A stretch of 64,000 bases of DNA from a virus (IMGVR_UViG_3300048929_000185:32001-96000); one strand, 5' to 3'. Shown: positions 2,609 through 31,629, numbered from the stretch's first letter. The notes: a model not told the origin generated them from the sequence alone. Translations and numbers: made by a program.

Positions 2609-2872
2609 TCATTTTCCTCCTATTATTTTTGCATATGAAAAGTGAATTTTATCTCAATTTTAATACTATATATTGTGTTTAAATCTTCTATAATTACAAG
2701 ATACAGTATGTATCAGCTATAATAAAGCGGATGTCCCCTATCTCCCAAATTAACACCTCCAATATTCAGTTTTAGTTATTTTAATTTTGTGATTGTTTTA
2801 GGTATTTACATTTACACCGCTGCCACGGTATTATTTTTAATATACAGTCTTTATATTACTAATTTCCAACAA

Positions 2873-3139
2873 TTACATCATTTGCCAAAATGCAGAATAT
2901 CTATTACCGTATGGCGGAATATAGATTCTCGTATCGTATTTTGACTCAAATTCTTTAGTTTTTTTGATAATCTCTTTTCGCAGATTCTCAATTTCCTCAA
3001 GATCTGAATTAAGTTTCTCCTTTAATTCTTTTTCTGCCTTTATAGCTCTCATTTTCTCTTCTTCAATTTGTTTTTCGTAGGCTACACACTCTTCTACTGT
3101 CTTAAATCCATCTTTACCATCTGTTGCTACAATTCTCAT
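2873..3139 (-). CDS. Hypothetical phage protein (coiled coil)
   Basis: ORF with GGAGG RBS. Confidence 0.7.
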   Translation of the reverse strand: MRIVATDGKDGFKTVEECVAYEKQIEEEKMRAIKAEKELKEKLNSDLEEIENLRKEIIKKTKEFESKYDTRIYIPPYGNRYSAFWQMM

Positions 3140-3190
3140 ATCATTGTCCTCCTTAATTAAATATTATTTCAACCGTATGAAACGGAGATT

Positions 3191-3523
3191 TTAAAGTTTA
3201 ATTCCGCCTGATCTGTCTTCTGCAATCCAGTATCTATCATTGCCGCCTAAGTCTTTCTCTATTTCGTAGTCTTTAGGATTAAGCATTGTACATGTAGCGT
3301 TTCCAGTCTGTAAGGGTGAAAATAAATCGGTAATTCTTTTACCACAATTCTGACACTCTACAACTTCTGTACTAAAAAATCCAGAATATTCAATCTGGCT
3401 ATTGCCACAATTGCATTCTACATTAAAAGATTCTTCATCTTCGTGTAGGTTCCAGCCTAATTCAGAAATGCACTCCTTAAAACTCATCACCTTAAAATCT
3501 GTAACGTCTTGTAATTTTTTCAC
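3191..3523 (-). CDS. Hypothetical zinc-ribbon protein
   Basis: CNCG...CQNC; GGAGG RBS, GTG start. Confidence 0.7.
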   Translation of the reverse strand: MKKLQDVTDFKVMSFKECISELGWNLHEDEESFNVECNCGNSQIEYSGFFSTEVVECQNCGKRITDLFSPLQTGNATCTMLNPKDYEIEKDLGGNDRYWIAEDRSGGIKL

Positions 3524-3562
3524 TAATTACCTCCTTATTTTAATACCGAGGAAACTCGGATT

Positions 3563-3970
3563 TTATTCAATTAAAGTAACTTTTCCATCGTTAAATTCCC
3601 ATTTCCATTCGCTGCCGTCTTCTCCTACAAAACAGAGAAACGACCCAGGTTCTACATATGTAGCAATTGCACTAAAAAATATTTTTTCATCTCCATATTT
3701 TTCTCCAACAAATTCAACATCACAAATATCTCCAGCCAAATTAAATATTGGTAAATATCTTATACCAGTTAATCCGTCTTCAAGTCTTTTACTATCAAGT
3801 ACAAATTTTGTAGACACCCATTTAAAATGAGGAATTCTTTCACCATCAATACTATCGTAACATGTCATATTTTCGGTAACAAACACACTTTTCAAGCTAT
3901 TTAGCGCCTTTGTAAAGTTTTCCTTTCTAATAATAAAATTACTATCTGTCATTTCTATAAGATACCCCAT
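3563..3970 (-). CDS. Hypothetical phage protein
   Basis: ORF with RBS; GEDG..WKWEF C-terminus. Confidence 0.75.
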   Translation of the reverse strand: MGYLIEMTDSNFIIRKENFTKALNSLKSVFVTENMTCYDSIDGERIPHFKWVSTKFVLDSKRLEDGLTGIRYLPIFNLAGDICDVEFVGEKYGDEKIFFSAIATYVEPGSFLCFVGEDGSEWKWEFNDGKVTLIE

Positions 3971-3971
3971 T

Positions 3972-4178
3972 CTATTCCTCCTTTAGTTTTACAATTTTTT
4001 CAATTAAATCAATATCTACACGACTTCCATCTATAACAAGTTCCCCACCGCTTCCAGATTCATACCAGATCTCTTCTAGCATTCCGTCTCTATGCCAACC
4101 ATTAAAATAGTATGCGGACACTTCATCTCCAATTTTCACCATGCTACAATCTTCATTTATTAATCCGGTTTTAACCAT
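3972..4178 (-). CDS. Hypothetical phage protein
   Basis: ORF with RBS. Confidence 0.65.
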   Translation of the reverse strand: MVKTGLINEDCSMVKIGDEVSAYYFNGWHRDGMLEEIWYESGSGGELVIDGSRVDIDLIEKIVKLKEE

Positions 4179-4220
4179 ATGTACCGTTCCTTTCTCCTGC
4201 CATGAAACAGGTATTCTATT

Positions 4221-4676
4221 CTATTTAGATGCTTCCATCAATTTTGAAAGCAAAAGTTTTTCTTCTGCCGGCATATTATTAAACTTTGTAATTACGTCCA
4301 TAATATATTCTGCTTTATAATACGGGATCTCTTCTAGCTTTTTATATACTTCAGATAATTCCTTATTCAATTCTGCAACTGCATTTTTAACCTGTTCAAT
4401 TCTCGGCTTTTGATCGGAAACTAATTGGCTATACTTACAATATAAATCTTCGCTCTTGCTTATTTCTTCTTCCACTGCTTTCCTATATTCGTCTCTAACC
4501 TTTTTAGCATGCAATTTAAAATTCAAGAAACTATCTTCTAAACATTCGTCCATTGCACTAGTGTCTCCGACAATTCTATTTACAGTTTCTTTAATGTCCT
4601 TTCCTTTTAATTTAATGCAATCCATTATCAAATCAAAATACGGCTCTAGCTCATCATCAATATGCTTATATCCCAT
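4221..4676 (-). CDS. Hypothetical coiled-coil protein
   Basis: Start reset to ATG 4676 after AGGAGA. Confidence 0.7.
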   Translation of the reverse strand: MGYKHIDDELEPYFDLIMDCIKLKGKDIKETVNRIVGDTSAMDECLEDSFLNFKLHAKKVRDEYRKAVEEEISKSEDLYCKYSQLVSDQKPRIEQVKNAVAELNKELSEVYKKLEEIPYYKAEYIMDVITKFNNMPAEEKLLLSKLMEASK

Positions 4677-4716
4677 ATATTCTCCTTTTCTCTTTAAAAG
4701 ATTTATTTTATCCACA

Positions 4717-5046
4717 TTAGATACACCCACCACAGCTTCCGTGCCTCCAGTCCTTGCTTTGGAATGCGTCATAAATTTGGATTTTTAATTCATGATCAGA
4801 AGATATGTTATTTAACCAATAATTGTTTTTTTCGATCCATTCTTCACAAAACAATCCGTCATCATAATCTTCAAATACTTCACTCCACTCTTCGAAGTGC
4901 CATTCCTGATACGTTCCGTATGTATTCATGTCACTGCATCTTATGTCGTCTGGTATTTTATCTGAAACATCGATATCATCAACAAATAAACTCCATTTAC
5001 CGAAACACAAACACGGATATGCTCCACTCCATTCCACTGATACCAT
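4717..5046 (-). CDS. Hypothetical phage protein (C-terminal SCGGCI)
   Basis: ORF with GGAGG RBS. Confidence 0.75.
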   Translation of the reverse strand: MVSVEWSGAYPCLCFGKWSLFVDDIDVSDKIPDDIRCSDMNTYGTYQEWHFEEWSEVFEDYDDGLFCEEWIEKNNYWLNNISSDHELKIQIYDAFQSKDWRHGSCGGCI

Positions 5047-5059
5047 AATATTTTACCTC

Positions 5060-5479: not shown

Positions 5480-5532
5480 ATTTACTTCTCCCTTTCTTCC
5501 ACAAATAAATCTTTTCATTTATCTGCTAAAAC

Positions 5533-5865: not shown

Positions 5866-5904
5866 TCTTCATACCTCCTTTGCCTCATATACTCTGATTT
5901 ATTT

Positions 5905-5961: not shown

Positions 5962-6115
5962 TAGAAAAAATAAAAAGTTTGCGTTATATATTCCATTACT
6001 ACTCAATCCATCTCATAAACTCTTCAGCTCTTTCATCACACAAATCTAGTTCCTCATTCTCTGATGCTTCGTCCTTCGTTCTTATCACCTCCAGACATGA
6101 AACCATGATTTTAAC

Positions 6116-6430: not shown

Positions 6431-6444
6431 GATTGCCTCCTTTT

Positions 6445-6861: not shown

Positions 6862-6895
6862 TTTTCCTCCTTAAAATGATGTTTCTATTGATAGA

Positions 6896-8810: not shown

Positions 8811-9033
8811 GTAAAAATCCTTTCGTCAAATTATTATTGTATTGGTTTCATAAACGATTGATTCTATTTTTTCCAATTCTTCTGTTCCAGAATAAAATCC
8901 ACCATCATCTCTATACTGAACTTCAATGTTATAATTCTCAATCCCAAGAATTTTAGCAGCGTCATAAAGTTCTTTTATCGTCATAATAATACCTCTCCTT
9001 TTCTTAATGAAAGCATTGTTTTAAACCGATTAT

Positions 9034-9524: not shown

Positions 9525-9554
9525 CTCTGTTTATCATAAAAGCAGTTAAAATAG

Positions 9555-10325
9555 TTATTTGATTGAATACTTTAACACCATTTTATGAAGTAATGTATAA
9601 TATGTCTCAAATATCCAATCAATTTGTATTGGATCTAGCCAACCATTCATTAATGTATCCAATGATTTAAAATCTTCTTTTCCTAAAAAATTAATAATCG
9701 TTGAATTATTCACCTTTTCAGTAAAATCAATTGCGTACATTTTACATATAGAACGTCTGCCCCAATAATTAAAAATCATTCCAAGTATCCTAGATAATAA
9801 TTCTAAAGTTATAGATGGTTTTGTATTTATAATTTGGGTTGCTAAAGTATGAGCTTCGGTAAGCAAGTCTTCTGCTTTTTTTACGCCAGTATGATCAAGT
9901 ACTTTTTCATTCATAGAAAAACTAAAATTGTCATCTAACTTTGTGAATCTAACTAACCTCATAAAATCTATCTGACCTGCGTGATATTCTGAAAATCCTC
10001 TATACATAATATTCGTAATTTTTTCACCTTTTGGCACATAATTTTTATTATCGAGCATATGTGTAAACTCATGAAACAGAACCCAATCTGCATGTAAAAT
10101 TGGCTCCCAAATATTTGAGTATACTTTTAACAAGTGAGCGTTGGTTGAAACGTCATAATAATACGAAGCTAGTGAATCGTAACCGTTCTTCTCTCCTCGT
10201 TCGACAAAATATTTTATTTCTTTTATTTGATACCGTGGTAACTTTTTAATTCCCATGAAAACGATATACTCTTTTGCAATTTTATTAATATAATTTTCTA
10301 ATCTGTTCATGCAATCATACCTCAT
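9555..10325 (-). CDS. Putative HEXXH zinc-metallopeptidase-like protein
   Basis: LFHEFTHMLD motif; 256 aa. Confidence 0.55.
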   Translation of the reverse strand: MRYDCMNRLENYINKIAKEYIVFMGIKKLPRYQIKEIKYFVERGEKNGYDSLASYYYDVSTNAHLLKVYSNIWEPILHADWVLFHEFTHMLDNKNYVPKGEKITNIMYRGFSEYHAGQIDFMRLVRFTKLDDNFSFSMNEKVLDHTGVKKAEDLLTEAHTLATQIINTKPSITLELLSRILGMIFNYWGRRSICKMYAIDFTEKVNNSTIINFLGKEDFKSLDTLMNGWLDPIQIDWIFETYYTLLHKMVLKYSIK

Positions 10326-10357
10326 TCGATAAATATTTTTTGATTAAAACTAACCTT

Positions 10358-10633
10358 TCAACTATATTCACTCAATTCTTTTAAAATCACATGTAACTCA
10401 TCATTGTCAACAAATTCAATATAATCGACACTGGAGTTTTCAAACACTCTTTTAATAAAAACCGTATCTACAGATTTTACATATATTGCTAAAGGTACAC
10501 TTACCACGTTTTTACCTTTAAATAAGCCCGTCAACTTGTGATTTGTTTCCCGATTAATTTCATACCAATAATCTTTATTTACTCCGTCGGTATCTCCTAT
10601 AGCTTCAATAAATTTAAAATCACTTTTATTCAT
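10358..10633 (-). CDS. Hypothetical phage protein
   Basis: ORF translationally coupled to the upstream gene. Confidence 0.65.
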   Translation of the reverse strand: MNKSDFKFIEAIGDTDGVNKDYWYEINRETNHKLTGLFKGKNVVSVPLAIYVKSVDTVFIKRVFENSSVDYIEFVDNDELHVILKELSEYS

Positions 10634-10838: not shown

Positions 10839-10852
10839 TTAAAACCTATGAT

Positions 10853-11161
10853 TTATAGGCTCCAATCCAACTTTTGTCCGCAATATTTATGGCTACAATA
10901 GTATTCATCATCGTCACCATTAATATAATTACCACAACAGGGACACTCTCCACTCTTAAACTCCATTCTAATAGAACCATCATTAGTTTCTTTTAAATTT
11001 AAAGGCTTTTTAGCTATTTGTTTATCGAGTGCCCCAAATACAATTTCTTTAATTTCACTTGTTTCTTGCCCATTATCACAGATTATAATAATTCTGCAAT
11101 ATTCGTCCGTATTACAGAGATCTTCGTCTTGTAAAATGTATAATACTTCAGATTCTGTCAT
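10853..11161 (-). CDS. Hypothetical zinc-ribbon phage protein
   Basis: ALDKQIAKKP...CPCCG...YCGQKLDW. Confidence 0.75.
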   Translation of the reverse strand: MTESEVLYILQDEDLCNTDEYCRIIIICDNGQETSEIKEIVFGALDKQIAKKPLNLKETNDGSIRMEFKSGECPCCGNYINGDDDEYYCSHKYCGQKLDWSL

Positions 11162-11197
11162 TTATTGAATTCTCCTTCCTTTGAAATCCCTCTTTGA

Positions 11198-11422
11198 TCA
11201 GTTAAAATATACTTTGTAAATCTCTTTTGCAAGACTATTCAATAAACTTAGTGCATTATCCTTGTCAATATCGTCGGTAGCTTCTGATAAAATGTTAGCA
11301 TAATCTTCACATAATTCATCTATACAAATATTTTGATATACCGCAATGTCTTCGCATATTCTTTCGTTATTTGCTTCTAATTCTTTTAATTTATCTCTTG
11401 TCGTTTTACTACTATCTTTCAT
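11198..11422 (-). CDS. Hypothetical phage protein
   Basis: ORF with RBS. Confidence 0.6.
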   Translation of the reverse strand: MKDSSKTTRDKLKELEANNERICEDIAVYQNICIDELCEDYANILSEATDDIDKDNALSLLNSLAKEIYKVYFN

Positions 11423-11644
11423 ATCATTCTCCTTTTACGATTAAAAGTCTTCATTTATTGGAATCCAATGGGCATAATGGTAATCCAGCATTAAACCCAT
11501 ATGCGTCCATGTCATCAATTTGTTTATTTAATTTGATACAAACATTAGTCCAATCATCAATCGATAAATCCCATTGTCTGAGATATGGACAATTTTTATC
11601 ACAATCTACAGGAAATTTTTTCATTTTTTATTCTCCTCATTACA

Positions 11645-12019: not shown

Positions 12020-12069
12020 TTTATTCTCCTTATTTTCTCTGTTAAAAGAACCATTTCCTTTGCTTCTTA

Positions 12070-12300: not shown

Positions 12301-12329
12301 TCATACCTCCTATTTTTCAAAGAAAAGAG

Positions 12330-12545
12330 TCATTTTATGTCCTCTACCCTACATATTGCTTTCATATCAGGATCATTTACGTGATACACCATTCCATTAA
12401 AAGCAATCATAGAATAACCCACGCTCTTAGCAACTTCTCTCACCTTATCATAATGACCGAAGAACCTCTTTGGATCAAAAACATCTCTCCATGAGATACT
12501 TTTATCTTGTGGTGGATTAAATACCGAAACTATATCAATTCCCAT
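12330..12545 (-). CDS. Hypothetical phage protein
   Basis: ORF with GGAGG RBS. Confidence 0.65.
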   Translation of the reverse strand: MGIDIVSVFNPPQDKSISWRDVFDPKRFFGHYDKVREVAKSVGYSMIAFNGMVYHVNDPDMKAICRVEDIK

Positions 12546-12557: not shown

Positions 12558-13361
12558 TTAATAAGCCATAATCTCTTCTAATTTATTATTGATTTCCTGT
12601 AACCCATCTTCCTTAACTCCAATGCTATTATGTATACTATCCGAAGAGTAAACTTTGAAAAACTTTTCTCCTGCCTGATTGACTTCCTGAATCTTTTTAT
12701 GTATGTATCCCATTGCTTTTGCCCACCTGGTAATCTGACCCTTTTTCAGATTCAACGCTTTAGTCACATCGGTAATTGAGTAGCAGCCTTTCTTATCAAT
12801 CCTCAGTTCCGCAAGAGCTGCCATAGGTTTCTGCTTCTCAATCGTTTCGATCAACGGCTGCGCAACCAAGCTTTCTAACTTATTAATGGCTAAAGCACGC
12901 TCGACTTCTGAATTTGCATTTACAATAGCAATAATCGCCAAATCTTTTTCTGAGATAGAAGATTTAACTGCACTTCTCATCTCAAAATATTCATCAATGA
13001 ATTTATCCATCGTATCCCAAGATTCATCATCATCCATATACTTAATCAGTTTGGAGTATCCTCTTTCGGATAGGATGAATGCATTTTTCTGACCATTGCT
13101 GGTAATTAATCCGAGGTCACCAGCAGTGACCTTGAGTTCTTCGCTCAAAAACAGGTCTATATAATCAACATTTTCCTTAATTCTGCCTTTCTCTATCAGT
13201 CTTTTAATTGACTGGTTGATTACTTTGGCTTCCAGTCCATGAGTACTGGTAATCATAGGAACCGTTGTAACCCTCTTATCGTTTCCGAATCCACCCTCAA
13301 TAACAGGAATCTCAATCCCCATAAACATTTGCTTTCCTACCACTTTTAATTCATTACCCAT
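12558..13361 (-). CDS. Antirepressor-like protein (ORF6N-type N-terminus plus KilA-C/ANT-like C-terminus)
   Basis: IPVIEGGFG, ILSERGYSKLIK, FIDEYFEMR, IEKQKP.. Confidence 0.8.
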   Translation of the reverse strand: MGNELKVVGKQMFMGIEIPVIEGGFGNDKRVTTVPMITSTHGLEAKVINQSIKRLIEKGRIKENVDYIDLFLSEELKVTAGDLGLITSNGQKNAFILSERGYSKLIKYMDDDESWDTMDKFIDEYFEMRSAVKSSISEKDLAIIAIVNANSEVERALAINKLESLVAQPLIETIEKQKPMAALAELRIDKKGCYSITDVTKALNLKKGQITRWAKAMGYIHKKIQEVNQAGEKFFKVYSSDSIHNSIGVKEDGLQEINNKLEEIMAY

Positions 13362-13659: not shown

Positions 13660-13685
13660 AACTTTTCTCCTTTAAAATCTATCAT

Positions 13686-13868
13686 TCATTCTCCAACCAC
13701 TCTATCAAGGACGGCTCCACAATATGGACAGTAGTTCCATCTCTCTATCTCGCTATCCTCTTTGCCGTTTTCAAATCTCCATCTCCCCAAATATTCACCA
13801 CATCTATCGCAATAAAGTAAACGCGTAACTGTCTTGTTTTCGCAATGGGTAAATCCAGTTTCGATCAT
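13686..13868 (-). CDS. Hypothetical zinc-ribbon protein
   Basis: CDRCG...NYCPYCG. Confidence 0.7.
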   Translation of the reverse strand: MIETGFTHCENKTVTRLLYCDRCGEYLGRWRFENGKEDSEIERWNYCPYCGAVLDRVVGE

Positions 13869-13909
13869 ATTTTCACCTCTCAATCCCAATTAAAATTCGT
13901 ATTCTATAT

Positions 13910-14095: not shown

Positions 14096-14300
14096 TTAAA
14101 CGCTCTCCTCACCCATAAAATCAGCCTTCTAACGTCTTATTTTTCGCTACAACCCCATCATTGCTCTTAACTTTATACTCTATCCGTTCATGACACTTGG
14201 GACACTCTTCATATCTTCCATGCTGCTTTGCTTCGTAATGAATACCAGATTCCATCATACATTTACATCTATTGCACCACATATGTATTTCCTCCTTATT

Positions 14301-14979: not shown

Positions 14980-15912
14980 CTATAATCTATCTAAAAAGTC
15001 TCTTACATATGCCCCATATCTATATCTGACCACAGATAGTTTAGCAACTTTAGGAGATAATCCATATTCTAGCGCCCATAACTCAATTTGCGGGGGTTCT
15101 TTTTTGAGTTCTCTTGAATTGCTTCTATTATCCTTGAAGAAAATATCCTCAAGAACTTCTTCGGAGTAATTACACTTCCTGTATAAATAGTTAATAAGTC
15201 CTGACATATACAACCTCGTTGTTGTAAATCCAGTTTTTACAAGTGTTCCGCTAATCATATGCATAAATAAAGTATAGTTATCTTCAGATCTTGGGTGATC
15301 TGGAACCTTAACAAAACTATCTTTATATGCATCATACAAGTTGTAATTAAGAGATACCTCTGTTTTATTTCTACCAGTAGACTTTATTGTTTCGTAAGTT
15401 TCGATATTATAATATAATGAAATTGATTCGCAAAGTTTTTTAGATATATTAATTGTGTAATTTTTAAAATGTATTTCCCTATTTGCAAGATCAACATCTT
15501 CCTTTTTTAAATCATATATATCATTCTTTTCTTTAGCACCCTCATACAGTAGCCCTAGAATACAATCCCAATAAATCTTATTAATTTTAACCGATCTATC
15601 TAGTTCTTCTGGAAATATATATATACCCTCATTAATATAATAAAACAAATTGTCTGAAGACAATTCAATAGAATCGCTAAACGGATTGTATCCGGTATAT
15701 CCTTCAGATTTACAAGCTTCATACATTAACGAATACGCTTTTACATATTCGTCTACGGATTGACGCTGCATTTTACCATTGTTTTTAAAAGCAGCTTTCC
15801 AATCGTCTACTCCCATCTTCAAAATATCTTTTCCATCAATAACTTTTAATATTATATTTTTTATTTTTATGTCATGTTTAATACATAATTCCATTAATTC
15901 TTTCGATTCCAT
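14980..15912 (-). CDS. MrpR/YopR-like master repressor (catalytically degenerate tyrosine-recombinase fold)
   Basis: LGLLYEG...IYDLKKEDVDL and RLYMSGLI motifs lacking the R/HxxR catalytic set; SPbeta-like context. Confidence 0.65.
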   Translation of the reverse strand: MESKELMELCIKHDIKIKNIILKVIDGKDILKMGVDDWKAAFKNNGKMQRQSVDEYVKAYSLMYEACKSEGYTGYNPFSDSIELSSDNLFYYINEGIYIFPEELDRSVKINKIYWDCILGLLYEGAKEKNDIYDLKKEDVDLANREIHFKNYTINISKKLCESISLYYNIETYETIKSTGRNKTEVSLNYNLYDAYKDSFVKVPDHPRSEDNYTLFMHMISGTLVKTGFTTTRLYMSGLINYLYRKCNYSEEVLEDIFFKDNRSNSRELKKEPPQIELWALEYGLSPKVAKLSVVRYRYGAYVRDFLDRL

Positions 15913-16019
15913 ACTGACCTCCACCTCTAAAAATAGAACATACTTTCGCTATTATAGCTACTCTAGCACAAAGTATAGCATGTGTCAATATGGTCATTCG
16001 TATACTTATGCTGTTATTA

Positions 16020-16924: not shown

Positions 16925-17101
16925 TTATTTTCCATCTCGCTCTAACTTTTCTTTAACAGATTCGTTAATATACCCATTAACAGATTTTCCAGTAGATTGG
17001 ATTCTCTCCTTAGTCCCCTTTGGAAATCTAACGAGTATGTTATCATTCACTTCATCGTGATATTTTTTAGAAGACTTTTGTGCTGCCTTGCTGACTGCCA
17101 T
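16925..17101 (-). CDS. Small ribbon-helix-helix/Arc-like DNA-binding protein
   Basis: MAVSKAAQKS...ILVRFPKGTKERIQSTGKSVNGYINESV. Confidence 0.7.
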   Translation of the reverse strand: MAVSKAAQKSSKKYHDEVNDNILVRFPKGTKERIQSTGKSVNGYINESVKEKLERDGK

Positions 17102-17187
17102 CGGATCACCCCTCTGATATGATGGTTTATATCTTACAGGATAATTCAAAATCTGTCAACTTTGGCTATTAAAATTCTAATTTTATG

Positions 17188-17565: not shown

Positions 17566-17603
17566 ATATCTCTCCTCTCTGTCAAATGAAAATTTAGTTT
17601 TAT

Positions 17604-18113: not shown

Positions 18114-18371
18114 ACTTCGCCCTCCTACTAAATATTTAATGTATTCCCATATGAATCTTAAAATTTATTGATATTTTATTAATATTTCAATCCACGTTCT
18201 TTACATAAATATCTTTCATATTGTAATCCTTCATATAAAGGATTATCGGTGTCTCCATTCGGATATAATCTTTTCCAATCTTTTTCGAGTTGTACTACAG
18301 ACTTTAAAAGTTCTTCATCTTTATAAAATGTTGCCTTCATATAACACTCCTTTCATAAATCTCAAATTTTA

Positions 18372-18716
18372 TTATGAATTATTTAATATTGATTCCAAAT
18401 CGTTAATAATTTGCCCACATAGCGAAAACTTCCCGTCTTTGTGCATATCCTGAGACATTTTATTATACTTATTCAGCAATCCAGTTATTTGTCTACGATA
18501 CCATTCTGGACATTTTCCTTTTGTTGTTTTTGCATATTGCTCATCACACAATATTTTTTTATAATCACCTTTGTTTATCATCTTCAATGTTTTTATCGTT
18601 TTATTCGCATCTATTTCACTAAAAACTTTTGCGGAAGATATGTTTCCGTTAAAAATAGATGAACTCCCAATCCAATTCGTAAAATATCTATTATTGGAAT
18701 CTTTAATTATGTACAC
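18372..18716 (-). CDS. Hypothetical phage protein
   Basis: ORF with GGAGG RBS, GTG start. Confidence 0.7.
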   Translation of the reverse strand: MYIIKDSNNRYFTNWIGSSSIFNGNISSAKVFSEIDANKTIKTLKMINKGDYKKILCDEQYAKTTKGKCPEWYRRQITGLLNKYNKMSQDMHKDGKFSLCGQIINDLESILNNS

Positions 18717-18765
18717 GACTTTACCTCCATCTTTCGTAAACGCCAGCTTGAATCTATTATTTTAT

Positions 18766-18981: not shown

Positions 18982-19009
18982 TTAATCCTCCGATCATTAA
19001 ATAATCATT

Positions 19010-19225
19010 TTAATTCTGATCTAATAGTCGCTCAATTAATTCTTGATAAGCAAGTACAAGACTCAACTCTAATGAATATGTGCCACTTATTTTCCCACTT
19101 AATTGATACAATTTTTTCATAGTTTCATTTTCAAGATTTCCTTTTGAATAATAAATTTCCATTAACTCTTCTGTAGACATATCTCTTATCGTTTTAATAA
19201 AATCAATTTCATTGTTCATTAACAT
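19010..19225 (-). CDS. Hypothetical phage protein
   Basis: Start reset to ATG after GGAGG. Confidence 0.6.
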   Translation of the reverse strand: MLMNNEIDFIKTIRDMSTEELMEIYYSKGNLENETMKKLYQLSGKISGTYSLELSLVLAYQELIERLLDQN

Positions 19226-19259
19226 ATTAGCGCCTCCATTCTTCAATAAAACAATTCTT

Positions 19260-19477
19260 TCAATTACATTTTTCAATATCAAATATAGGCAATTCGCTAC
19301 TTAACTCAGGCTTCCATGTCGTGTTTAGATCTTCTTTCTTCAATATCTGCTTAACCGCCTTTACGTCCATGCGGAACACTGTAGCAACCCGCTTAACGTC
19401 TCCAAATCGTCTGTACTCCATTATAATGTCATCATCAGTTAATCATAGTATACCGGCTCATTCATGTATTCTTTCAT
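19260..19477 (-). pseudogene. Small HTH-like gene with a one-base frameshift near 19441
   Basis: MKEYMNEPVYYD joins LTDDDIIMEYRRFGDVKRVATVFRMDVKAVKQIL if one T is restored. Confidence 0.5.
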
Positions 19478-19488: not shown

Positions 19489-20481
19489 CTATAAACTCAT
19501 CATCAAAGAGGCCATTTTACTTTTATCCATATGAACATAAAACTTAGCAGCCGTTTCCAGGCTCCTATGTCTCAACTGTCTTTGTACAAATACAATATCC
19601 TTAGTCTTTTCGTATAATACCGTACCTACCCAGTGGCGTAGCATATGTGGATTTATCTGTCCATCACTATACGCGCTGAAGAATGATGCAATGGGAGTCT
19701 TGCTAATGCGATTACATCTATTAGATAGGAATAATGCGTTTTCATCTTTTATACCGCGATCTGTCACAAATTCATCCCTCTTTATTAAATAATCTTCCAA
19801 GTAATATTTTGCCTTTGCCGAAATAAACACTTCGTCTTTGATTTCACGTTTACCCTTGCCCATTACCGTAATGTAAGGAGCCTCTTCTTCAAAGTGCAAA
19901 TCAGATACATCAAGTCCGATCAGTTCTTCTGATCTAATTCCACTACCTAAAAATAATTGTACTATAGCAATATTCCTCGTGCAATCAAAATCATTATTAT
20001 TTCCCTGTTCCACACTATTGATGAAGTTCTCAAGCTGATCCTCGGTAGGAATCTTCACAACGTGATTTGTTATCTCAGACTTATATAAATGTCCTGGTAT
20101 TTGTTTGATGATGTTTTCGTCAACAATTTTCTGCTCCACAAGATATGACCAAAAAGCACTTAGAACATTCTTTTTTGTGCCTAGCGTATTTAAGGTATTC
20201 GGAGTACAATCAATTCCGTTCTTCAGAGAGTTAAGGTAGTTGATAATATCTATTGAAGTAACCTGATTCATAAGTACTGGAGTAATTTCTGATATGGAAT
20301 TTACAGAGATGCAATTAGCACACAACCATTGTAGCATATTTTCGATATATCCCCAGTATACAACTTTACTGGCTTCAGATTTGTACCGTGTGAAGTAGTT
20401 GCATATAAATCTAGGAGCATTTACCATCTTCTCAGACAAGATATTCGCAAGTTTCTTATGCCGTTCGTCTTTATAACACAT
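19489..20481 (-). CDS. Tyrosine recombinase/integrase with intact catalytic residues
   Basis: GIRSEEL (R), GKG (K), HMLRH (HxxR), LRH (H), KFYVH (Y). Confidence 0.93.
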   Translation of the reverse strand: MCYKDERHKKLANILSEKMVNAPRFICNYFTRYKSEASKVVYWGYIENMLQWLCANCISVNSISEITPVLMNQVTSIDIINYLNSLKNGIDCTPNTLNTLGTKKNVLSAFWSYLVEQKIVDENIIKQIPGHLYKSEITNHVVKIPTEDQLENFINSVEQGNNNDFDCTRNIAIVQLFLGSGIRSEELIGLDVSDLHFEEEAPYITVMGKGKREIKDEVFISAKAKYYLEDYLIKRDEFVTDRGIKDENALFLSNRCNRISKTPIASFFSAYSDGQINPHMLRHWVGTVLYEKTKDIVFVQRQLRHRSLETAAKFYVHMDKSKMASLMMSL

Positions 20482-21598: not shown

Positions 21599-21705
21599 TT
21601 TTTAGCCCTCCATATTATCATTATTTCATATGATTATATCATAAGCACAATTAACAGACAATGAATGTTGCCAAAGAAATGATTGATTTATTGATAAATT
21701 TCAGT

Positions 21706-21975: not shown

Positions 21976-22045
21976 CTTTAATCCCCCAATTCCGCAAAAT
22001 TCTAACCTAACTAATAAATCACTTATTTTAAAGTTAAATCTTGGT

Positions 22046-22327: not shown

Positions 22328-22360
22328 TTTTATCTCCTTTTCTACTTTGAAATTGTGCAT

Positions 22361-22504
22361 TTATCTGTTTACTTGATGCATAATCTTTTCTTTTGCGCTC
22401 TCAATGTCTTTTGCGACCACATTTATTTCTTTATCATTGATGACAAATGAATATGTGGCATACAGCCCATAATACAGTCGTGATGATTCATCATACTTAC
22501 TCAT
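22361..22504 (-). CDS. Small hypothetical protein (47 aa, not in ORF track)
   Basis: MSKYDESSRLYYG...; GGAGG RBS; stop inside a junction repeat. Confidence 0.55.
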   Translation of the reverse strand: MSKYDESSRLYYGLYATYSFVINDKEINVVAKDIESAKEKIMHQVNR

Positions 22505-22819: not shown

Positions 22820-23062
22820 TTAAGGTTTAATTAATTCCATAAAACATGCGTTTGCTATCAACGTATATGTTTCATCAAATCTATCATACATTAAAACAAT
22901 GTTTCCATCACTATAAGCCTTTACAAGTTTTGAATTACTAATCCATTGCGCAACATCTGATTCAATAAAGTAATGTAATAATCTTTCTTTTACTTCATCT
23001 TCTTTTAAATTAATTCTTGTAAATAATCTTTTAGAGTTTTTATTTGCTTCTTCAAATTTCAT
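22820..23062 (-). CDS. Hypothetical phage protein
   Basis: ORF with RBS. Confidence 0.65.
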   Translation of the reverse strand: MKFEEANKNSKRLFTRINLKEDEVKERLLHYFIESDVAQWISNSKLVKAYSDGNIVLMYDRFDETYTLIANACFMELIKP

Positions 23063-23914: not shown

Positions 23915-24670
23915 CTATCTATATTTCCACTCACTTACATAATCAAAGGCTACATCAAAATATTTTGGATTGAGATCCCTGTATGACGCACAACCATAAA
24001 GAGCCTTGAGTCCGTTCCACATATTAATGAAGTAACTTTTAGCATTCTCTTTATATTCCATGCTATGCGCTCCGCCTAACAAAGCACCAATTCTATCTTT
24101 TCCAGCCTTATAAATCTTCTGCTGTTGTCTTGTTGATAACGTCATATTATCCATTACGCAGGATAGTATTTCAAGCTGTTTATCAATAGTTTCTTCCATT
24201 CTGTTAATTTGTACTGTCTGAGTCTTCTGAATCTCTTTCATTTCCATGATTTGTCCTTCTAATCCAAGTGATGTATGAAGTGCTTCTTTCTGCTCACTTG
24301 TTTCGTAGAATGCTTTGTGAAGAACGTCTGTTGCTTCCAATTGATACTTTAGCAAAACACCTGTTGCTTCCGGATTCTTATTCAGCATAGATGGAGTAAG
24401 ATGAATTTGAGCCAACCACATAGGAACAAATCTTTCAATTAAAACAAATATTGTTCTTACCTGTCCGTCATATTTGACGGATAGCTCTTTCCAATTATTA
24501 TTAAATAACAAGTTCTTTTTTACCTTTTTTACTTCATTGTCCGCCTGATTGCCATTAAGTCCAATGTCTATTGACGCTTTTCTAATTGCTAACCAAATAT
24601 TTCCGTCTTCTGTCTTTACTCCTAATAATGTTTTCCCGTTGAACGGGACTTCTTTGATCTCTGTTTTCAT
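23915..24670 (-). CDS. Antirepressor-like protein (P22-AR-type N-terminus plus ORF6C-type C-terminus)
   Basis: IKEVPFNG..LLGV, PMWLAQI, YQLEATDVLHKAF, SYRDL..KYFDVAFDYVSEW. Confidence 0.8.
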   Translation of the reverse strand: MKTEIKEVPFNGKTLLGVKTEDGNIWLAIRKASIDIGLNGNQADNEVKKVKKNLLFNNNWKELSVKYDGQVRTIFVLIERFVPMWLAQIHLTPSMLNKNPEATGVLLKYQLEATDVLHKAFYETSEQKEALHTSLGLEGQIMEMKEIQKTQTVQINRMEETIDKQLEILSCVMDNMTLSTRQQQKIYKAGKDRIGALLGGAHSMEYKENAKSYFINMWNGLKALYGCASYRDLNPKYFDVAFDYVSEWKYR

Positions 24671-25066: not shown

Positions 25067-25174
25067 CTTTCAGCCTCCTTACATCATTATATTATCACTT
25101 TAACAAGTACCTGTCAAGCACTATTTTATGTATTTTGTGTTTATAAACGCCTTTAAAATCACGCTTCTATCTGT

Positions 25175-25543: not shown

Positions 25544-25619
25544 TATATTCCCCTCTCTTTCTCAATAAAAGACTTCATTTATCAGTTTAATAATAAAAAA
25601 AGAAGCCATATTAAGCTTC

Positions 25620-27046: not shown

Positions 27047-27081
27047 TTAATTCCCTCCGTTTTAATAATAAAATGTGCTTT

Positions 27082-27306
27082 TTATTTGATGTTACAAGAT
27101 TCTTTTAACTCCCAATTTGCTTGCTCTGCATCTTTCTTGGTAACATAACACTCGATAACCGGATTAAATTCGTATCCCTCTTGGTCATATACAAGTGCAT
27201 ATTTCTTGCTAGGATAATATTTGCTTGTAAGAGGATTATCATTTTTAGATATATCTGTCACACCCTCAAAAGTACGTTTTACTATTTTAATATTAGTTAC
27301 CTGCAT
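27082..27306 (-). CDS. Hypothetical phage protein
   Basis: Start reset to MQVTNI after GGAGG. Confidence 0.65.
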   Translation of the reverse strand: MQVTNIKIVKRTFEGVTDISKNDNPLTSKYYPSKKYALVYDQEGYEFNPVIECYVTKKDAEQANWELKESCNIK

Positions 27307-27491
27307 TCTTATTTCCTCCTTTAAAACCTGTTTTTTATCTGCACATATCAAATGGAATATAGTAACACTCACCATTACAAAGCATATATTCAAAGCCAAA
27401 TTTTGTTATCGTTGTAATAGTTCCGTTGATGTTATTTTCTCTCATGTATCTAGTAGCTAGACATTTTTCCATTCTATTCCCTCCTTAAAAT

Positions 27492-27692
27492 CTATTTTTC
27501 ATGGTGTATTGACGCACCCATTTTATTGCCACATGAACACCTGATCTCCAATGTGATTTTTTCTAATTTGCCATTAATGGATTCACAATAATGATGTGTT
27601 GGCACTATCCAAGCTTCCTTTCCGCACCTATTGCATACAACACTAAAATCTTCATTATTTCCATATTCTTCTGTTCCAAATGGTCTAATCAT
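27492..27692 (-). CDS. Hypothetical zinc-ribbon protein
   Basis: CNRCG...CSCG. Confidence 0.65.
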   Translation of the reverse strand: MIRPFGTEEYGNNEDFSVVCNRCGKEAWIVPTHHYCESINGKLEKITLEIRCSCGNKMGASIHHEK

Positions 27693-27726
27693 TTTACATT
27701 CTCCTTTTCATTTTAAAATTACAATT

Positions 27727-27996
27727 TTAATTATATCCTAGACATGTTTTACAAGCTCCTACAAGCGCGTGATCCGTTAACATTTGTCTGGTAATAATTG
27801 CATAAGCTAATTGACGGTCGAGCAATGCTTTTTCTGTTAAGTGCTTGATTACATCGCTACCGTCTCCCATTTCAAAACAAGCATCGAATTCCCTGTCGTC
27901 TTCTCCTCTGCGTGGTCTTCCTGACTTTATCATACTGGCTGCTAATGTTGCTCTTGCTTTTGCGGTTTTTACTGTATATGGATTTCTTTTATTCAT
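27727..27996 (-). CDS. Hypothetical phage protein
   Basis: ORF with RBS. Confidence 0.65.
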   Translation of the reverse strand: MNKRNPYTVKTAKARATLAASMIKSGRPRRGEDDREFDACFEMGDGSDVIKHLTEKALLDRQLAYAIITRQMLTDHALVGACKTCLGYN

Positions 27997-28048
27997 AATA
28001 TTTAAACCTTTCTTTTATTTTTATAAGCCATTGAAAATTACATTTTAT

Positions 28049-28280: not shown

Positions 28281-28925
28281 CTATGCAAATACTTTTCCAT
28301 CTGATTCTCTTATTTTAAAGTTTCTATACTCGACCACTGGCTTCCCAAAATGTTCAACACAATCTTTAAAAAATCTTGCATCGAAACAGCTGTATTTTGA
28401 TTGACGTAAATTATCGCTTATTTTATTGTGTGTAACTTCTTCGGATAAATCATGCCAACCCTTATATATTGCAAGGCTGCAATCATAGAAATTAATATAC
28501 ACGTCAGAGCGTTTTATTGCCCTTTTAGCCGTTATTTTGATAGCATCAGTATATTGTGCATACTGGCAAGGTGAAACGCCTTTAAACACGATTTTATCAG
28601 CTACAGGGAAGCCAAATTCATTCATATAAACAAGAGTGTATTTGTTCCCTTTGATCAACTTGGCGTTGATAATTGCTTTCTGAAATGGTTCTGCATTCTC
28701 AATATAAAACTGCCTGAATTCGTCTACTGTGTCCGGTTCCATTTCTCCAGATTCTATAAAATAAGCAAGCACATTTTCGTCTGTCAATTCCCTTTGCCAT
28801 CTTTTGCAAAAAGAAAAGAGTAATTTTTCATACTCTTCTTTTGTATGTGCCTGTGATGTAACCGTAAAATATTCCTCTGCGATATGATTGTAAAATCCTG
28901 CGTTACTTCTGATATATGGCAACAT
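28281..28925 (-). CDS. Hypothetical phage protein
   Basis: 214 aa ORF with GGAGG RBS. Confidence 0.75.
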   Translation of the reverse strand: MLPYIRSNAGFYNHIAEEYFTVTSQAHTKEEYEKLLFSFCKRWQRELTDENVLAYFIESGEMEPDTVDEFRQFYIENAEPFQKAIINAKLIKGNKYTLVYMNEFGFPVADKIVFKGVSPCQYAQYTDAIKITAKRAIKRSDVYINFYDCSLAIYKGWHDLSEEVTHNKISDNLRQSKYSCFDARFFKDCVEHFGKPVVEYRNFKIRESDGKVFA

Positions 28926-28927
28926 GT

Positions 28928-29128: not shown

Positions 29129-29145
29129 ATTCTATATCCACCTCC

Positions 29146-29721: not shown

Positions 29722-29812
29722 GATAACTACCTCCATTTAATTTAACTTAATTATTCCCACTATTAAAGCCACCGGAACGCTGTCCAATGGCTTTAAACTG
29801 TGGATAAAAGTA

Positions 29813-30019
29813 CTATTCTATGTGTATTAATGATTCTCTAACCACTTTCAAAAGTGCGGTAAAATTATCTTCATGTATTGTATAATCTGAATAATAGTTT
29901 TTAAGTTTCCAACCGCTTTTGCAACCAATGACGCACCAAAACCCATCATCATCTTTATATATATCTTTAATGGCAGCGTGATACTTTTTAGGTATCCTAT
30001 TTAATAATTTTTTATCCAT
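29813..30019 (-). CDS. Hypothetical phage protein
   Basis: ORF with RBS. Confidence 0.65.
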   Translation of the reverse strand: MDKKLLNRIPKKYHAAIKDIYKDDDGFWCVIGCKSGWKLKNYYSDYTIHEDNFTALLKVVRESLIHIE

Positions 30020-30275
30020 ATATGTTATCTCCTGTTTGTTTTAGGTTAAAATCCGCATTTTATTAAGCAAATAGGTTCATGGGTTTCATAGTCTTACTTG
30101 CTACCCAAGACTTCCAACCATATGAATAATAAACGTTTGTATATTCTGGATTTTCGTTACTGAATACGATTGCCTCTTCTTCAAAATCAAATGTATAAAA
30201 ATCATGCGTTTTGTTATCTGTATAACGTTCCATTTGATTACCTTCCCTTTTACTGTCAAAGAATAGTTTTATTTA

Positions 30276-30518
30276 CTATTGTTTAAGTACGGAAAAACCT
30301 TTTTCGTTTTCCATATCGTAAAATAAACTTGCTTCTTCTAATGATATTTCATCTATTGATTCTATATCATGTGTTTTATAATGATATTTCATCATATCAG
30401 TTTTCAAGAAATTCCATACTTGTTCTCTTGATGGCTGTTCTACATCTGATTTAATGCAAATACCGTAACTATCAGTGAATAAAATTTCATAATACTTTGT
30501 GTTCTTGCAATATTTCAT
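30276..30518 (-). CDS. Hypothetical phage protein
   Basis: ORF with GGAGG RBS. Confidence 0.65.
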   Translation of the reverse strand: MKYCKNTKYYEILFTDSYGICIKSDVEQPSREQVWNFLKTDMMKYHYKTHDIESIDEISLEEASLFYDMENEKGFSVLKQ

Positions 30519-30555
30519 CTTCTTTTCCTCCTCATAAAATAATCGTTTAATTGGT

Positions 30556-30765
30556 TTAATACTTCAATGTAAAATCATCTGTTAAAAGAATGTCGTGTAC
30601 CCCTTTAATGAAATGAACGTATCCTTTCTGATTTATGTACCATTCCTGCCCCTTTGTGTTATAGATATTGTTTGATGTGTAACTACCTACAACACTGTTT
30701 ATAAGTTCTTCTTTTAGCTTTATACAAGCATTATTTGTATAGGCTTCTTTAATACAGTAGGCCAT
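30556..30765 (-). CDS. Hypothetical phage protein
   Basis: ORF with GGAGG RBS. Confidence 0.65.
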   Translation of the reverse strand: MAYCIKEAYTNNACIKLKEELINSVVGSYTSNNIYNTKGQEWYINQKGYVHFIKGVHDILLTDDFTLKY

Positions 30766-30788
30766 GTCATTTCCTCCATTCTACACCT

Positions 30789-30857
30789 ACGGACTTGTGA
30801 CCGTCTGACTTGCGTCAGGTGCATTAAAACGGCTATGTGTCAGCCGTTTCACTCTGC
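30789..30857 (-). ncRNA. Twister-like self-cleaving ribozyme, circularly permuted (type P5)
   Basis: Minus strand GCA-GAGUG-[AAACGGCU/AGCCGUUU]-UAA-UGC-AC-[CUGAC GCAA GUCAG]-[ACGG UCACAAGU CCGU]; CAC/GUG and AC/GU pseudoknots. Confidence 0.7.
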
Positions 30858-30860
30858 TGA

Positions 30861-31196
30861 TTAATAAGTATACATAGTTTCAATGTCTACCCATTTGTTA
30901 TTTTCTTCATTATAAAGTTTTCCGGTACAACCATCTAACCAACTAGCTTTTATAAACCAATCACCAGAAAACTCAAAGTATTTGTAAGAAATATTATAAT
31001 TTGCTTCAAGTAATTTTAATATTACTGTTTTAGGAACTCCTTCTCTTCCGGCAGATAAATAACATCCACATTCCCCTTCTTTTCTTGCTTCTTCAATTTT
31101 GTCTAAACATTTAATCAATGCTTTTGGTTCTGTCTCCATTCTCATATTTTCCGCTTTTGGCACATGAATTTCTTTGATTGTTCCGTTCTTTTTCAT
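30861..31196 (-). CDS. Hypothetical phage protein
   Basis: ORF in array. Confidence 0.7.
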   Translation of the reverse strand: MKKNGTIKEIHVPKAENMRMETEPKALIKCLDKIEEARKEGECGCYLSAGREGVPKTVILKLLEANYNISYKYFEFSGDWFIKASWLDGCTGKLYNEENNKWVDIETMYTY

Positions 31197-31243
31197 AATT
31201 ATTATTCTCTCTTTCCGCCACGTAAGGCTATAAAATTCGGTAT

Positions 31244-31417
31244 TTATTGATTAGTCATTTCTTCGATTCTATTTGTTACCTGTTCAATTTTACCATCTAT
31301 TGCAATCAAGCTTGATACAAGCTGCCAGTCGTAACCGCTACCTAATTCCTTGCAAATCATTTCTCTTTTATCTTTCATTCTTTGTAAATCGGTAATTAAA
31401 TAATCAATCTGTTTCAT
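31244..31417 (-). CDS. Hypothetical phage protein
   Basis: Start reset to MKQID. Confidence 0.6.
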   Translation of the reverse strand: MKQIDYLITDLQRMKDKREMICKELGSGYDWQLVSSLIAIDGKIEQVTNRIEEMTNQ

Positions 31418-31452
31418 ATTTATGTCCTCTCTTTTCTGATAAAATGGATATT

Positions 31453-31629
31453 TTAACGTTCCCAATAGTAACCAGATCCGTCTAATAACGTAATCTGTAC
31501 GCCATCTGCGTCTGCTTGAATGTCTGCAACCTGATTCATGTCAATCATGTCTCCGTTTCCAAATCTGCCAAATAAAAAAGCACTTATGACAAGTGCGGTT
31601 GTGATGATTGCATATTTGATTTTTCTCAT
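31453..31629 (-). CDS. Small membrane-anchored protein (58 aa, not in ORF track)
   Basis: MRKIKYAIITTALVISAFLFGR...DGSGYYWER; stop inside a junction repeat. Confidence 0.65.
   Translation of the reverse strand: MRKIKYAIITTALVISAFLFGRFGNGDMIDMNQVADIQADADGVQITLLDGSGYYWER

Follow-up and report, generated by a model that had tools for sequence, protein, structure and literature searches.

An ordered array of 18-bp inverted-repeat sites with unique 6-bp centers at gene junctions of an SPbeta-like phage: candidate core sites for slot-by-slot exchange of accessory genes

RESULTS

Inverted-repeat sites punctuate the small-gene arm

The stretch of DNA analyzed here, IMGVR_UViG_3300048929_000185:32001-96000 (64,000 nucleotides; the window), comprises bases 32,001 to 96,000 of a 123,206-bp viral contig, which is an estimated 62% complete. 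The first 33 kb of the window are part of a 64-kb minus-strand arm of small genes, and the subject of this study is an 18-bp site, made of two inverted 6-bp arms around a 6-bp center, that recurs at the gene junctions of this arm (Table 1). The terminase is 47% identical to the terminases of Bacillus phages SPbeta and phi3T; placed by this sequence, the phage is SPbeta-like.

The motif array is a genuine feature of the DNA. An earlier note, made from the sequence alone, had described the pattern WTRAAA-N6-WTTYAT with a preferred 6-bp spacer, and both its enrichment over background and its spacing were borne out. The window holds 30 matches, whereas dinucleotide-shuffled sequences average 2.92 and never exceed 9. 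When arm spacings of 0 to 12 bp were compared across the minus arm (window 1 to 32,700), a gap of 6 bp was the sole one enriched, with 24 loci (shuffled mean, 1.28; maximum, 4) against 0 to 4 for each other gap, while the plus arm was at background (3 gap-6 loci versus 1.1). With a weight matrix, 66 sites scored at least 10.5 bits within positions 1 to 64,500 of the contig, 57 of them intergenic by the called genes, and 12 did so in the remaining 59 kb; because the matrix was derived from the sites themselves, these scores are partly circular. The same part of the contig holds 63 to 66 sites, and 47 sites of at least 10 bits lie in window positions 1 to 33,759. On the sense strand the consensus reads A-T-A/G-A-A-A, six free bases, and T-T-T-T/C-A-A/T. 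The half-site consensus is the same for both arms, and the center is uninformative within the genome, where all 62 centers differ.

The list of 44 starts given in the earlier note stood only in part. Thirty-five of them reach at least 10 bits, and the strict consensus fits 20; nine (7259, 7622, 7937, 8850, 9253, 20796, 21674, 23083, and 30255) are weaker, and neither 20796 (−0.7 bits) nor 23083 (3.2 bits) is a credible site. Conversely, 11 sites of at least 10 bits within window 1 to 32,700 were absent from that list (794, 1480, 4694, 4771, 5505, 9546, 15785, 19246, 22891, 28001, and 29804). All 12 stop codons that had been placed inside sites coincide with the ends of open reading frames (ORFs).

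The position of the sites relative to the genes is narrowly defined. Each starts 0 to 15 nucleotides (nt) past the upstream stop codon, or overlaps it, and ends approximately 10 to 37 nt ahead of the next start codon and 0 to 20 nt ahead of the ribosome site; because of this last distance, many junctions lack room for a promoter and leader. The stop codon falls at site positions 2 to 4 in 14 sites of the arm, 10 of them inside the window. Sites are spaced at a median of 554 bp, and the 62 intervals contain one called gene in 31 cases, two in 9, and three in 5. No fold was predicted for 71% of 63 18-mers, with a mean of −0.29 kcal/mol. By eye, we also observed sigma-A-like promoters (TTGACA-like plus TATAAT-like hexamers) on the sense strand downstream of the sites at 17169, 25153, and 21674 (17100 to 17168, 25080 to 25152, and 21600 to 21673, respectively), and these junctions may start transcription units.

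TABLE 1 Junction sites and associated genes of the window (window coordinates; sites are written as left arm, center, right arm)
Coordinates	Strand	Feature	Score (bits)	Remarks
1-33759	-	Junction-site array, small-gene arm		Continues 32 kb beyond window start, as far as contig position 1
794-811	-	ATCAAA TGATGG ATTTAT	10.7	Within called gene
1480-1497	-	TTGAAA AAATGT TTTTAT	11.1	Within called gene
1868-2608	-	Sak single-strand annealing protein		PF06378, 1e-24
2635-2652	-	ATAAAA TTCACT TTTCAT	14.0	
3177-3194	-	TTAAAA TCTCCG TTTCAT	15.4	Upstream stop at positions 2-4
3549-3566	-	ATAAAA TCCGAG TTTCCT	13.6	Stop at positions 2-4
4202-4219	-	ATAGAA TACCTG TTTCAT	13.8	
4694-4711	-	ATAAAA TAAATC TTTTAA	14.6	Within called gene
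4771-4788	-	TTAAAA ATCCAA ATTTAT	11.0	Within called gene
5505-5522	-	ATAAAT GAAAAG ATTTAT	10.9	
6097-6114	-	TTAAAA TCATGG TTTCAT	16.5	
6871-6888	-	ATAGAA ACATCA TTTTAA	11.0	
9007-9024	-	TTAAAA CAATGC TTTCAT	15.9	
9546-9563	-	ATCAAA TAACTA TTTTAA	11.0	
10344-10361	-	TTGAAA GGTTAG TTTTAA	14.3	Stop at positions 2-4
10839-10856	-	ATAAAT CATAGG TTTTAA	12.9	Stop at positions 2-4
11181-11198	-	ATCAAA GAGGGA TTTCAA	12.2	Center shared with G002, collinear
11441-11458	-	ATAAAT GAAGAC TTTTAA	13.4	
12042-12059	-	AGGAAA TGGTTC TTTTAA	10.5	Center shared with G002 and G003
12321-12338	-	ATAAAA TGACTC TTTTCT	11.5	
13672-13689	-	ATGAAT GATAGA TTTTAA	12.2	Stop at positions 2-4
13890-13907	-	ATAGAA TACGAA TTTTAA	13.7	
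14115-14132	-	TTAGAA GGCTGA TTTTAT	13.9	
15785-15802	-	TTGGAA AGCTGC TTTTAA	10.7	Weak
17169-17186	-	ATAAAA TTAGAA TTTTAA	15.9	
17586-17603	-	ATAAAA CTAAAT TTTCAT	13.5	
18151-18168	-	ATAAAT TTTAAG ATTCAT	10.3	Weak
18355-18372	-	ATAAAA TTTGAG ATTTAT	14.0	Center shared with G002 and G003
18748-18765	-	ATAAAA TAATAG ATTCAA	12.9	Center shared with G002 and G003
18996-19013	-	TTAAAA TGATTA TTTAAT	11.1	Center shared with G003; stop at positions 2-4
19246-19263	-	TTGAAA GAATTG TTTTAT	15.3	First site downstream of array recombinase gene
19489-20481	-	Array tyrosine recombinase, 330 amino acids, family A1		PF00589, 1.4e-23; second candidate
22014-22031	-	TTAAAA TAAGTG ATTTAT	13.5	Center shared with G002
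22347-22364	-	ATAAAT GCACAA TTTCAA	13.0	Stop at positions 2-4
22891-22908	-	ATGGAA ACATTG TTTTAA	11.0	Within called gene
25153-25170	-	ATAGAA GCGTGA TTTTAA	13.5	
25565-25582	-	ATAAAT GAAGTC TTTTAT	14.1	
27068-27085	-	ATAAAA AGCACA TTTTAT	14.2	Center shared with G002 and G003
27321-27338	-	ATAAAA AACAGG TTTTAA	14.0	Center shared with G003
27485-27502	-	ATGAAA AATAGA TTTTAA	12.4	Center shared with G003
27713-27730	-	TTAAAA TTGTAA TTTTAA	14.3	Center shared with G003
28001-28018	-	ATAAAA GAAAGG TTTAAA	11.3	Weak
28031-28048	-	ATAAAA TGTAAT TTTCAA	12.1	
29804-29821	-	ATAGAA TAGTAC TTTTAT	13.1	blastn homology of loci L066 and L067 begins 4-5 nt from site start
30046-30063	-	ATAAAA TGCGGA TTTTAA	17.2	Top score
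30534-30551	-	ATTAAA CGATTA TTTTAT	12.1	Center shared with G002 and G003, order versus ACCGAA swapped there
31230-31247	-	ATAAAT ACCGAA TTTTAT	13.2	Center shared with G002 and G003
31439-31456	-	TTAAAA TATCCA TTTTAT	14.6	Center shared with G002; L067 homology block extends from here to the 31230 site
33742-33759	-	TTGAAA CTAATG TTTCAA	14.3	Outside the range of the earlier note
48958-49989	+	YomM-like tyrosine recombinase, 343 amino acids		phrog_1 integrase, 1.5e-35; PF00589; leading candidate
49986-50003	+	Junction-type site	13.1	Overlaps TAG stop (49987-49989) of YomM-like gene

Centers recur in order in close relatives

A search of viral contigs with the recombinase alone gave no close relatives, and the route to them was the gene of 214 amino acids at 28281 to 28925. 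It led to three closer relatives of ~120 kb, of which two, G002 and G003, were compared whole; G001 to G003 are incomplete records, estimated to be 61 to 78% complete. In one sequencing run, a related-phage contig was found at higher depth beside the present phage, matching window stretches 28578 to 28925 and 31556 to 31655; there the same gene is ~90% identical and is followed by ~4.1 kb of other sequence versus 2.6 kb here.

Nine of the present centers recur in G002 and 12 in G003, all in the same orientation, with chains of 8 and 11, respectively. In 2,000 letter-shuffles the mean number of matches was 1.9 for G002 and 2.5 for G003, and the longest chain was 5 (P < 1/2,000). The 40-nt flanks on either side were at background identity for each of the 21 shared sites. 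A comparison of G002 with G003 gave 32 common centers in perfect order, neither flank being alike at 24 of them. The contents of individual slots differ accordingly from genome to genome. Three single genes occupy the slots TTGTAA>AATAGA>AACAGG>AGCACA (27713 to 27068); they are dissimilar in protein sequence to those of G003, and the lengths differ. The slot TAATAG>TTTGAG (18748 to 18355) likewise holds a gene without protein similarity in G002 or G003, and its length differs from that in G003. The order of ACCGAA and CGATTA is reversed here (30534 to 31247) with respect to G002 (61634 to 61815) and G003 (117506 to 117687); a swap of this kind is impossible by in-register exchange, and therefore some other event moved the slot.

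Crossovers fall within the centers in 55 related loci

An alignment of the array-recombinase family (A1) was used to collect 55 loci, 21 kb each, from large viral contigs; among genome contigs, homologues were found at three loci only (Lachnospiraceae, Eubacterium, and Oscillospiraceae assemblies). The 55 loci form three clades of mosaic relatives with 90 to 99% identity. None of them is similar in DNA to the present genome, and the number of its centers shared with these distant loci, 6 versus 2.3 expected, is not convincing. The loci were also enriched for the motif at a gap of 6 bp only (301 matches versus 19 to 57 at other gaps).

The earlier note had proposed that breakpoints in relatives be compared with the sites. 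As seen in the 55 loci, 15.8% of 2,782 blastn block ends lie inside a site, compared with 1.3% of random positions (12 times chance), the block starts clustering at site position 0 and the block ends at positions 14 to 18. Breakpoints occurred at 238 of 270 motif junctions (88%) versus 601 of 1,455 motif-less junctions (41%), and length matching left 156 of 180 versus 215 of 395 (54%). At motif-less junctions, homology ended diffusely.

Pairs of contexts were then sorted by their outer flanks alone. Pairs alike in the left flank only (n = 147) showed an identity of 0.93 to 1.0 through position 12 and background values at positions 13, 16, and 18, whereas pairs alike in the right flank only (n = 130) were at background at positions 1 to 6 and at 0.94 to 1.0 from position 7. 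The center is therefore common to both kinds of partner, and by this comparison the crossover is confined to it. One single center was found in 30 of the 39 left-flank families having several right partners. Twenty-one center classes join at least two left with at least two right families, and five of these passed the four-gamete test; the center AGATAA is found with 12 left and 14 right families in 25 combinations. Within a locus no center was repeated, although ~56 repeats were expected from the pooled list. These results support the proposal of the earlier note that the sites delimit units of one to three genes, and the sites behave as recombination joints: homology blocks in relatives start and stop at sites, one left flank is joined to several right flanks at a single site, and single-gene slots with the same centers carry nonhomologous genes in G003.

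The sites are present in Bacillus phages

SPbeta contains 37 strict loci at gap 6 versus 2 to 7 at other gaps. The matrix finds 48 sites there; most lie in the early cluster, again at stop codons. The dyad arms extend to 11 bp in SPbeta, phi3T, and Goe14 (11-6-11; 28 bp), a form that occurs 18 to 19 times per genome versus once for a control pattern, and the arms are identical across these three phages and the gut phages. When flank classes were assigned blind to the sites in the Bacillus trio, all 10 left-only pairs and 13 of the 15 right-only pairs agreed in the center, as did 25 of 6,552 pairs that were unrelated.

No direct or inverted duplicate centers were found in G000, G002, G003, SPbeta, or Goe14, and phi3T has one direct pair. 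This sole duplicated center, GAGGGA, lies at 28637 and 86617 of PP526178.1, and the right arm of the second copy is poor. None of 258 distinct centers is palindromic, with 2.8 expected, a count as low being reached in 45 of 1,000 shuffles. This count fits an asymmetric overlap, which in a tyrosine-recombinase core site gives a direction, and the shared centers are co-oriented and collinear between genomes.

Phages of this family also carry a different repeated element, SPBRE, which is bound by MrpR/YopR/SroF, a repressor of recombinase fold described as keeping 3 of 7 catalytic residues (excerpts of PMC10516654). Looking ahead of the 10 published target genes for a common element, we recovered it at nine; it is AT-rich and promoter-like. 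In SPbeta (NC_001884.1), a box ending in a TATAAT-like hexamer lies upstream of yorE, aimR, yonT, yonP, yonX, yorZ, yosX, yopV, and yopM, and this box shared by nine MrpR targets is presumably SPBRE. A reading of the junction sites as SPBRE served by an MrpR was dropped: the recovered SPBRE is unlike the dyad, and the array recombinase has no MrpR match (8A0A absent at E ≤ 1).

Candidate recombinases

The genome encodes three tyrosine recombinases, one at the contig end, one inside the array (19489 to 20481), and one at window 48958 to 49989. The last is 33% identical to SPbeta YomM (E = 3e-53), with R, K, HxxR, H, and Y, the full catalytic set, all within the alignment. A site also follows the stop of the yomM homologue at 21 bp in Goe14 and at ~400 bp in SPbeta and phi3T. 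The YomM family was found in 9 of 9 motif-bearing genomes examined (including SPbeta, phi3T, Goe14, and G001 to G005). With SPbeta YomM as the query, it was absent at E ≤ 1e-3 from phiCD211 and MT835478, both of which lack motif enrichment; the YomM-like query of the window gave weak matches (~1e-5) over the C-terminal third in these two phages.

The array enzyme has its best matches of solved structure in XerH (1.5e-14) and XerD (7.6e-10), whereas IntI4 reached merely E = 0.011 over 46 residues. Among 35 members of family A1, R183, E186, H279, R282, H305, and Y315 are invariant and K209 is kept in at least 90%. Its gene lies in a 2.7-kb interval flanked by two ordinary sites. Four related genomes have three tyrosine recombinases each (end, middle, and arm), with loci at contig 834 to 1418 (outside the window), G002 120939 to 121493, and G003 56662 to 57195. 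The arm-embedded recombinases of different phages belong to unrelated families. An assignment of the enzyme by co-occurrence was dropped: the array family is absent from G001 to G003, the "end" integrases are not orthologous, and only the YomM family is shared. The YomM-like enzyme is the leading candidate and the array enzyme the second; with so few genomes compared and several weak matches among them, the YomM assignment is a lead and not a finding. As for earlier mention of these genes, yopP has only a domain note in PMC8612738, and the review PMC8270828 mentions neither yomM nor yopP.

Other genes and features of the window

An HNH endonuclease gene with a NUMOD4 motif (1195 to 1854, minus strand) adjoins the Sak gene. 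Three antirepressor-like genes lie in the same arm, all on the minus strand, at 31706 to 32614 (ORF6N), 12558 to 13361 (ANT/KilAC), and 23915 to 24670 (P22_AR_N plus ORF6C). The ORF of 314 amino acids at 14980 to 15924 (minus strand) had no match to any Pfam family, to a solved structure at E ≤ 10, or in the phage collection, and an MrpR-like identity for it is unsupported by its sequence. At approximately 41,250 to 41,434, a stretch of up to ~170 bases (55 to 60 in most rows) is 76 to 96% identical to 212 phage records, mostly of Staphylococcus, Listeria, Enterococcus, and Bacillus phages, the remainder of the 8-kb query being matchless, a pattern suggestive of a mobile intron or homing element. 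An identity with Herelleviridae was dropped, since the megablast matches were confined to a stretch of at most ~170 bases and the terminase points to kinship with SPbeta.

DISCUSSION

Putative core sites with unique overlaps as addresses

Comparison of the genomes establishes the sites, their position, the uniqueness of their centers, and the conservation and order of these centers between genomes, together with crossovers confined to the center. We consider it likely, on these sequence comparisons, that the sites are Xer-type recombination core sites whose unique overlaps serve as addresses of slots. The architecture of inverted arms flanking a 6-bp center, in which the earlier note had recognized a tyrosine-recombinase core site, fits this view. 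The appeal of that note to the tolerance of Tn916-type integrases for variable spacers does not hold, as the center is the best-conserved part of the junctions between genomes and is common to recombining partners. A site of two arms flanking a 6-bp central region is also described for XerH, which is said to read only the inner 5 bp of each arm (excerpts of PMC5241119); among proteins of solved structure, XerH is the nearest to the array recombinase.

In the mechanism that we propose, the two inverted 6-bp arms (WTRAAA/TTTYAW; 11 bp in the Bacillus phages) would bind two recombinase monomers, and the 6 bp between them would be the overlap region in which strands are exchanged. The only partner of a site would be the one that carries the identical overlap in another, related genome present in that cell, for example, when a resident prophage meets an incoming phage. 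One exchange would give a recombinant at that junction, and two exchanges at two addresses would swap the intervening segment of one to three genes, in register and with the gene order kept. Within a genome, sites would not recombine with each other, because each overlap is different and nonpalindromic. More tentatively, and with somewhat less than even confidence, we suggest that this amounts to natural cassette exchange in SPbeta-like phages, from the prophage of Bacillus subtilis 168 to phages of gut Lachnospiraceae, by which the YomM family would act on 50 to 65 heterospecific core sites per genome in slot-by-slot, homology-free swaps.

Several observations weigh against the proposal. The evidence is purely comparative, and from it we infer both that a recombinase is involved and which one. 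The enzyme assignment is strained by SPbeta YomM, which has HxxK in place of the HxxR found in the others, by the weakness of the family's matches in G002 (E = 7e-7) and G005 (E = 3.6e-4), and by G001, which has a YomM-like gene and few strict sites; the array family, for its part, has no homologue in the site-carrying, incomplete records G001 to G003. In the 55 loci, 9 of 39 left-flank families have more than one center, and the pairs behind the per-position linkage are not independent events. The deficit of palindromic centers is only mildly significant (P ~0.045), as is that of duplicate centers within six genomes (one pair versus ~5 expected). The laboratory hybrid Hyb3phi3Ts-SPbeta shows six parent switches that lie in long identical stretches or are siteless, and one of them, at 53993 to 54033, is without any site; therefore, ordinary homologous recombination also shapes these genomes. 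Finally, no excised circles or site-site joints were seen in three sequencing runs, for which only contigs were available. Because all centers are unique within the genome, excision is not expected, and the result is neutral in that respect.

Alternative explanations

The dyad itself, its intergenic location just ahead of ribosome sites, and its restriction to the early arm would also suit operators for a dimeric DNA-binding regulator, comparable to the stoperator array of mycobacteriophage L5, exchange then being a by-product of the sole conserved intergenic sequence. SPbeta-like phages moreover own a recombinase-fold repressor with many sites, as described in excerpts of PMC10516654 and 10.1101/2025.11.27.690993. 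We nevertheless hold operators to be unlikely, although a regulatory role of the sites alongside recombination is possible. An operator needs no unique center kept between genomes, and here the center is what the junctions conserve best; SPBRE, as recovered from the published MrpR targets, is a different, promoter-like sequence. Furthermore, SroF is described as a monomer on a nonpalindromic 26-bp box whose motif specificity differs between phi3T and SPbeta (excerpts of 10.1101/2025.11.27.690993), whereas the dyad arms are the same in both phages. Exchange without any dedicated enzyme, through conserved linkers used for short-homology recombination by Sak or the host machinery, a long-standing view in modular phage evolution that has also been put forward for the PeSL elements, seems to us quite unlikely. 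It would draw on the Sak that the phage encodes, on the ~12 identical bp that partners share (the center together with those arm bases that do not vary; as many as 28 bp in the Bacillus phages), and on the fact that homologous recombination does produce hybrids of these phages. However, short homology should favor likeness of the whole site, and the variable positions of the far arm are near background (0.52 versus 0.46 at position 16; 0.75 versus 0.76 at position 6). It also leaves unexplained the inverted arms, the fixed 6-bp gap, and the keeping of the arms from Bacillus to Lachnospiraceae phages.

Two further readings are much less probable. An element that acts in the polycistronic early RNAs, whether in their processing, as an operator of translation, or as an enhancer ahead of the ribosome site, would account for the fixed sense-strand place between stop codon and ribosome site, but we think it very improbable: the half-sites are DNA symmetric with both kinds of mismatch on either strand, and the unique centers kept in order, with crossovers within them, are unexplained. 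An RNA hairpin in particular was dropped, no stable structure being predicted for most 18-mers. The label "integron-like" used in the earlier note has to be given up, and an integron proper, with attC-like sites folded from single strands, an IntI-type integrase, and circular excised cassettes, is hardly credible, even though the small genes are co-oriented, with a site behind each, and the array includes a tyrosine recombinase. Sites of attC type measure ~60 to 140 bp. The present sites are not attC-like, because they are 18 bp long and mostly (71%) without a predicted fold; their flanks are not complementary, and frequent A3/C16 combinations disrupt pairing. The array enzyme resembles XerH and XerD rather than an integron integrase, no genome offers two sites of the same center as an excision substrate, and no inter-site joints were seen in the contigs.

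Implications

Ever since the modular theory of phage evolution, it has been debated why unrelated genes of tailed phages are exchanged so neatly at their boundaries, with conserved "linker" sequences and random illegitimate joins followed by selection as the two proposals. The joints visible here have the anatomy of recombinase sites, and the base-by-base pattern of exchange is as expected if partners had to be identical over the 6-bp overlap. If the proposal is true, any two members of the family could swap accessory genes without homology and without scrambling gene order, and the early arm would be an ordered, addressable library of accessory genes. It would also provide a function for the conserved recombinase genes yomM and yopP and, for genome engineering, dozens of mutually orthogonal recombination sites. 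The same sites in SPbeta and phi3T of Bacillus subtilis allow a direct test by existing genetics.

Comparison with known systems

In the literature searched, which did not extend to the 1999 SPbeta genome paper, the 2023 sro-operon paper, or supplements, we found no description of this dyad, of addressed exchange, or of an ordered heterospecific phage array. The present analysis contributes the linkage control at motif-less junctions, the flank classes assigned blind in the Bacillus trio, the distinction from SPBRE, the negative outcome for the hybrid, and the YomM lead. The nearest likeness in architecture is to dif/pdif sites (excerpts of PMC5241119, PMC13141974, PMC6449649, and PMC9947245), which have inverted arms and a 6-bp center, the Bacillus-phage form being 11-6-11; in the pdif modules of Acinetobacter plasmids, such sites bound accessory genes that are reshuffled between replicons. 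The present arrays differ in that there are 50 to 65 sites per genome, at nearly every second junction, co-oriented, each with its own center and in a kept order. They lie in a phage arm and not a plasmid, their two arms are symmetric and do not form XerC and XerD halves, and the suspected enzyme is one of the phage. The PeSL elements of T4-type phages (excerpts of PMC2839356 and PMC4122927) are alike as short early intergenic elements that mark gain, loss, or replacement of accessory genes. They consist of a promoter and terminator hairpins and are thought to work via homologous recombination, whereas the present sites have no predicted hairpin and no evident promoter (no promoter scan was run) and instead have a recombinase-type dyad with a site-specific center.

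SPBRE shares with the junction sites the phage family, the repeated early-arm intergenic location, and a protein of tyrosine-recombinase fold. It is described at ~10 promoter sites (excerpts of PMC10516654), compared with 48 junction sites in SPbeta, and, in contrast to MrpR, both candidate enzymes here retain the catalytic set. Integrons, including phage-borne ones (excerpts of PMC9892861), likewise combine co-oriented, mostly single-gene units, recombination sites, and a nearby tyrosine recombinase; the present system lacks attC hairpins, an IntI-type enzyme, and an excision substrate, and its exchange would proceed slot for slot between genomes rather than by capture at an end. Shufflons and other invertible multisite systems are unlike it, as there are no inverted duplicate centers here. 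The closest parallel in logic may be laboratory cassette exchange with heterospecific lox or FRT sites, in which sites with the same arms and different overlaps recombine only with their own kind and a cassette is swapped in register. That system is engineered and uses two or three sites; the one proposed here would be natural and would use dozens.

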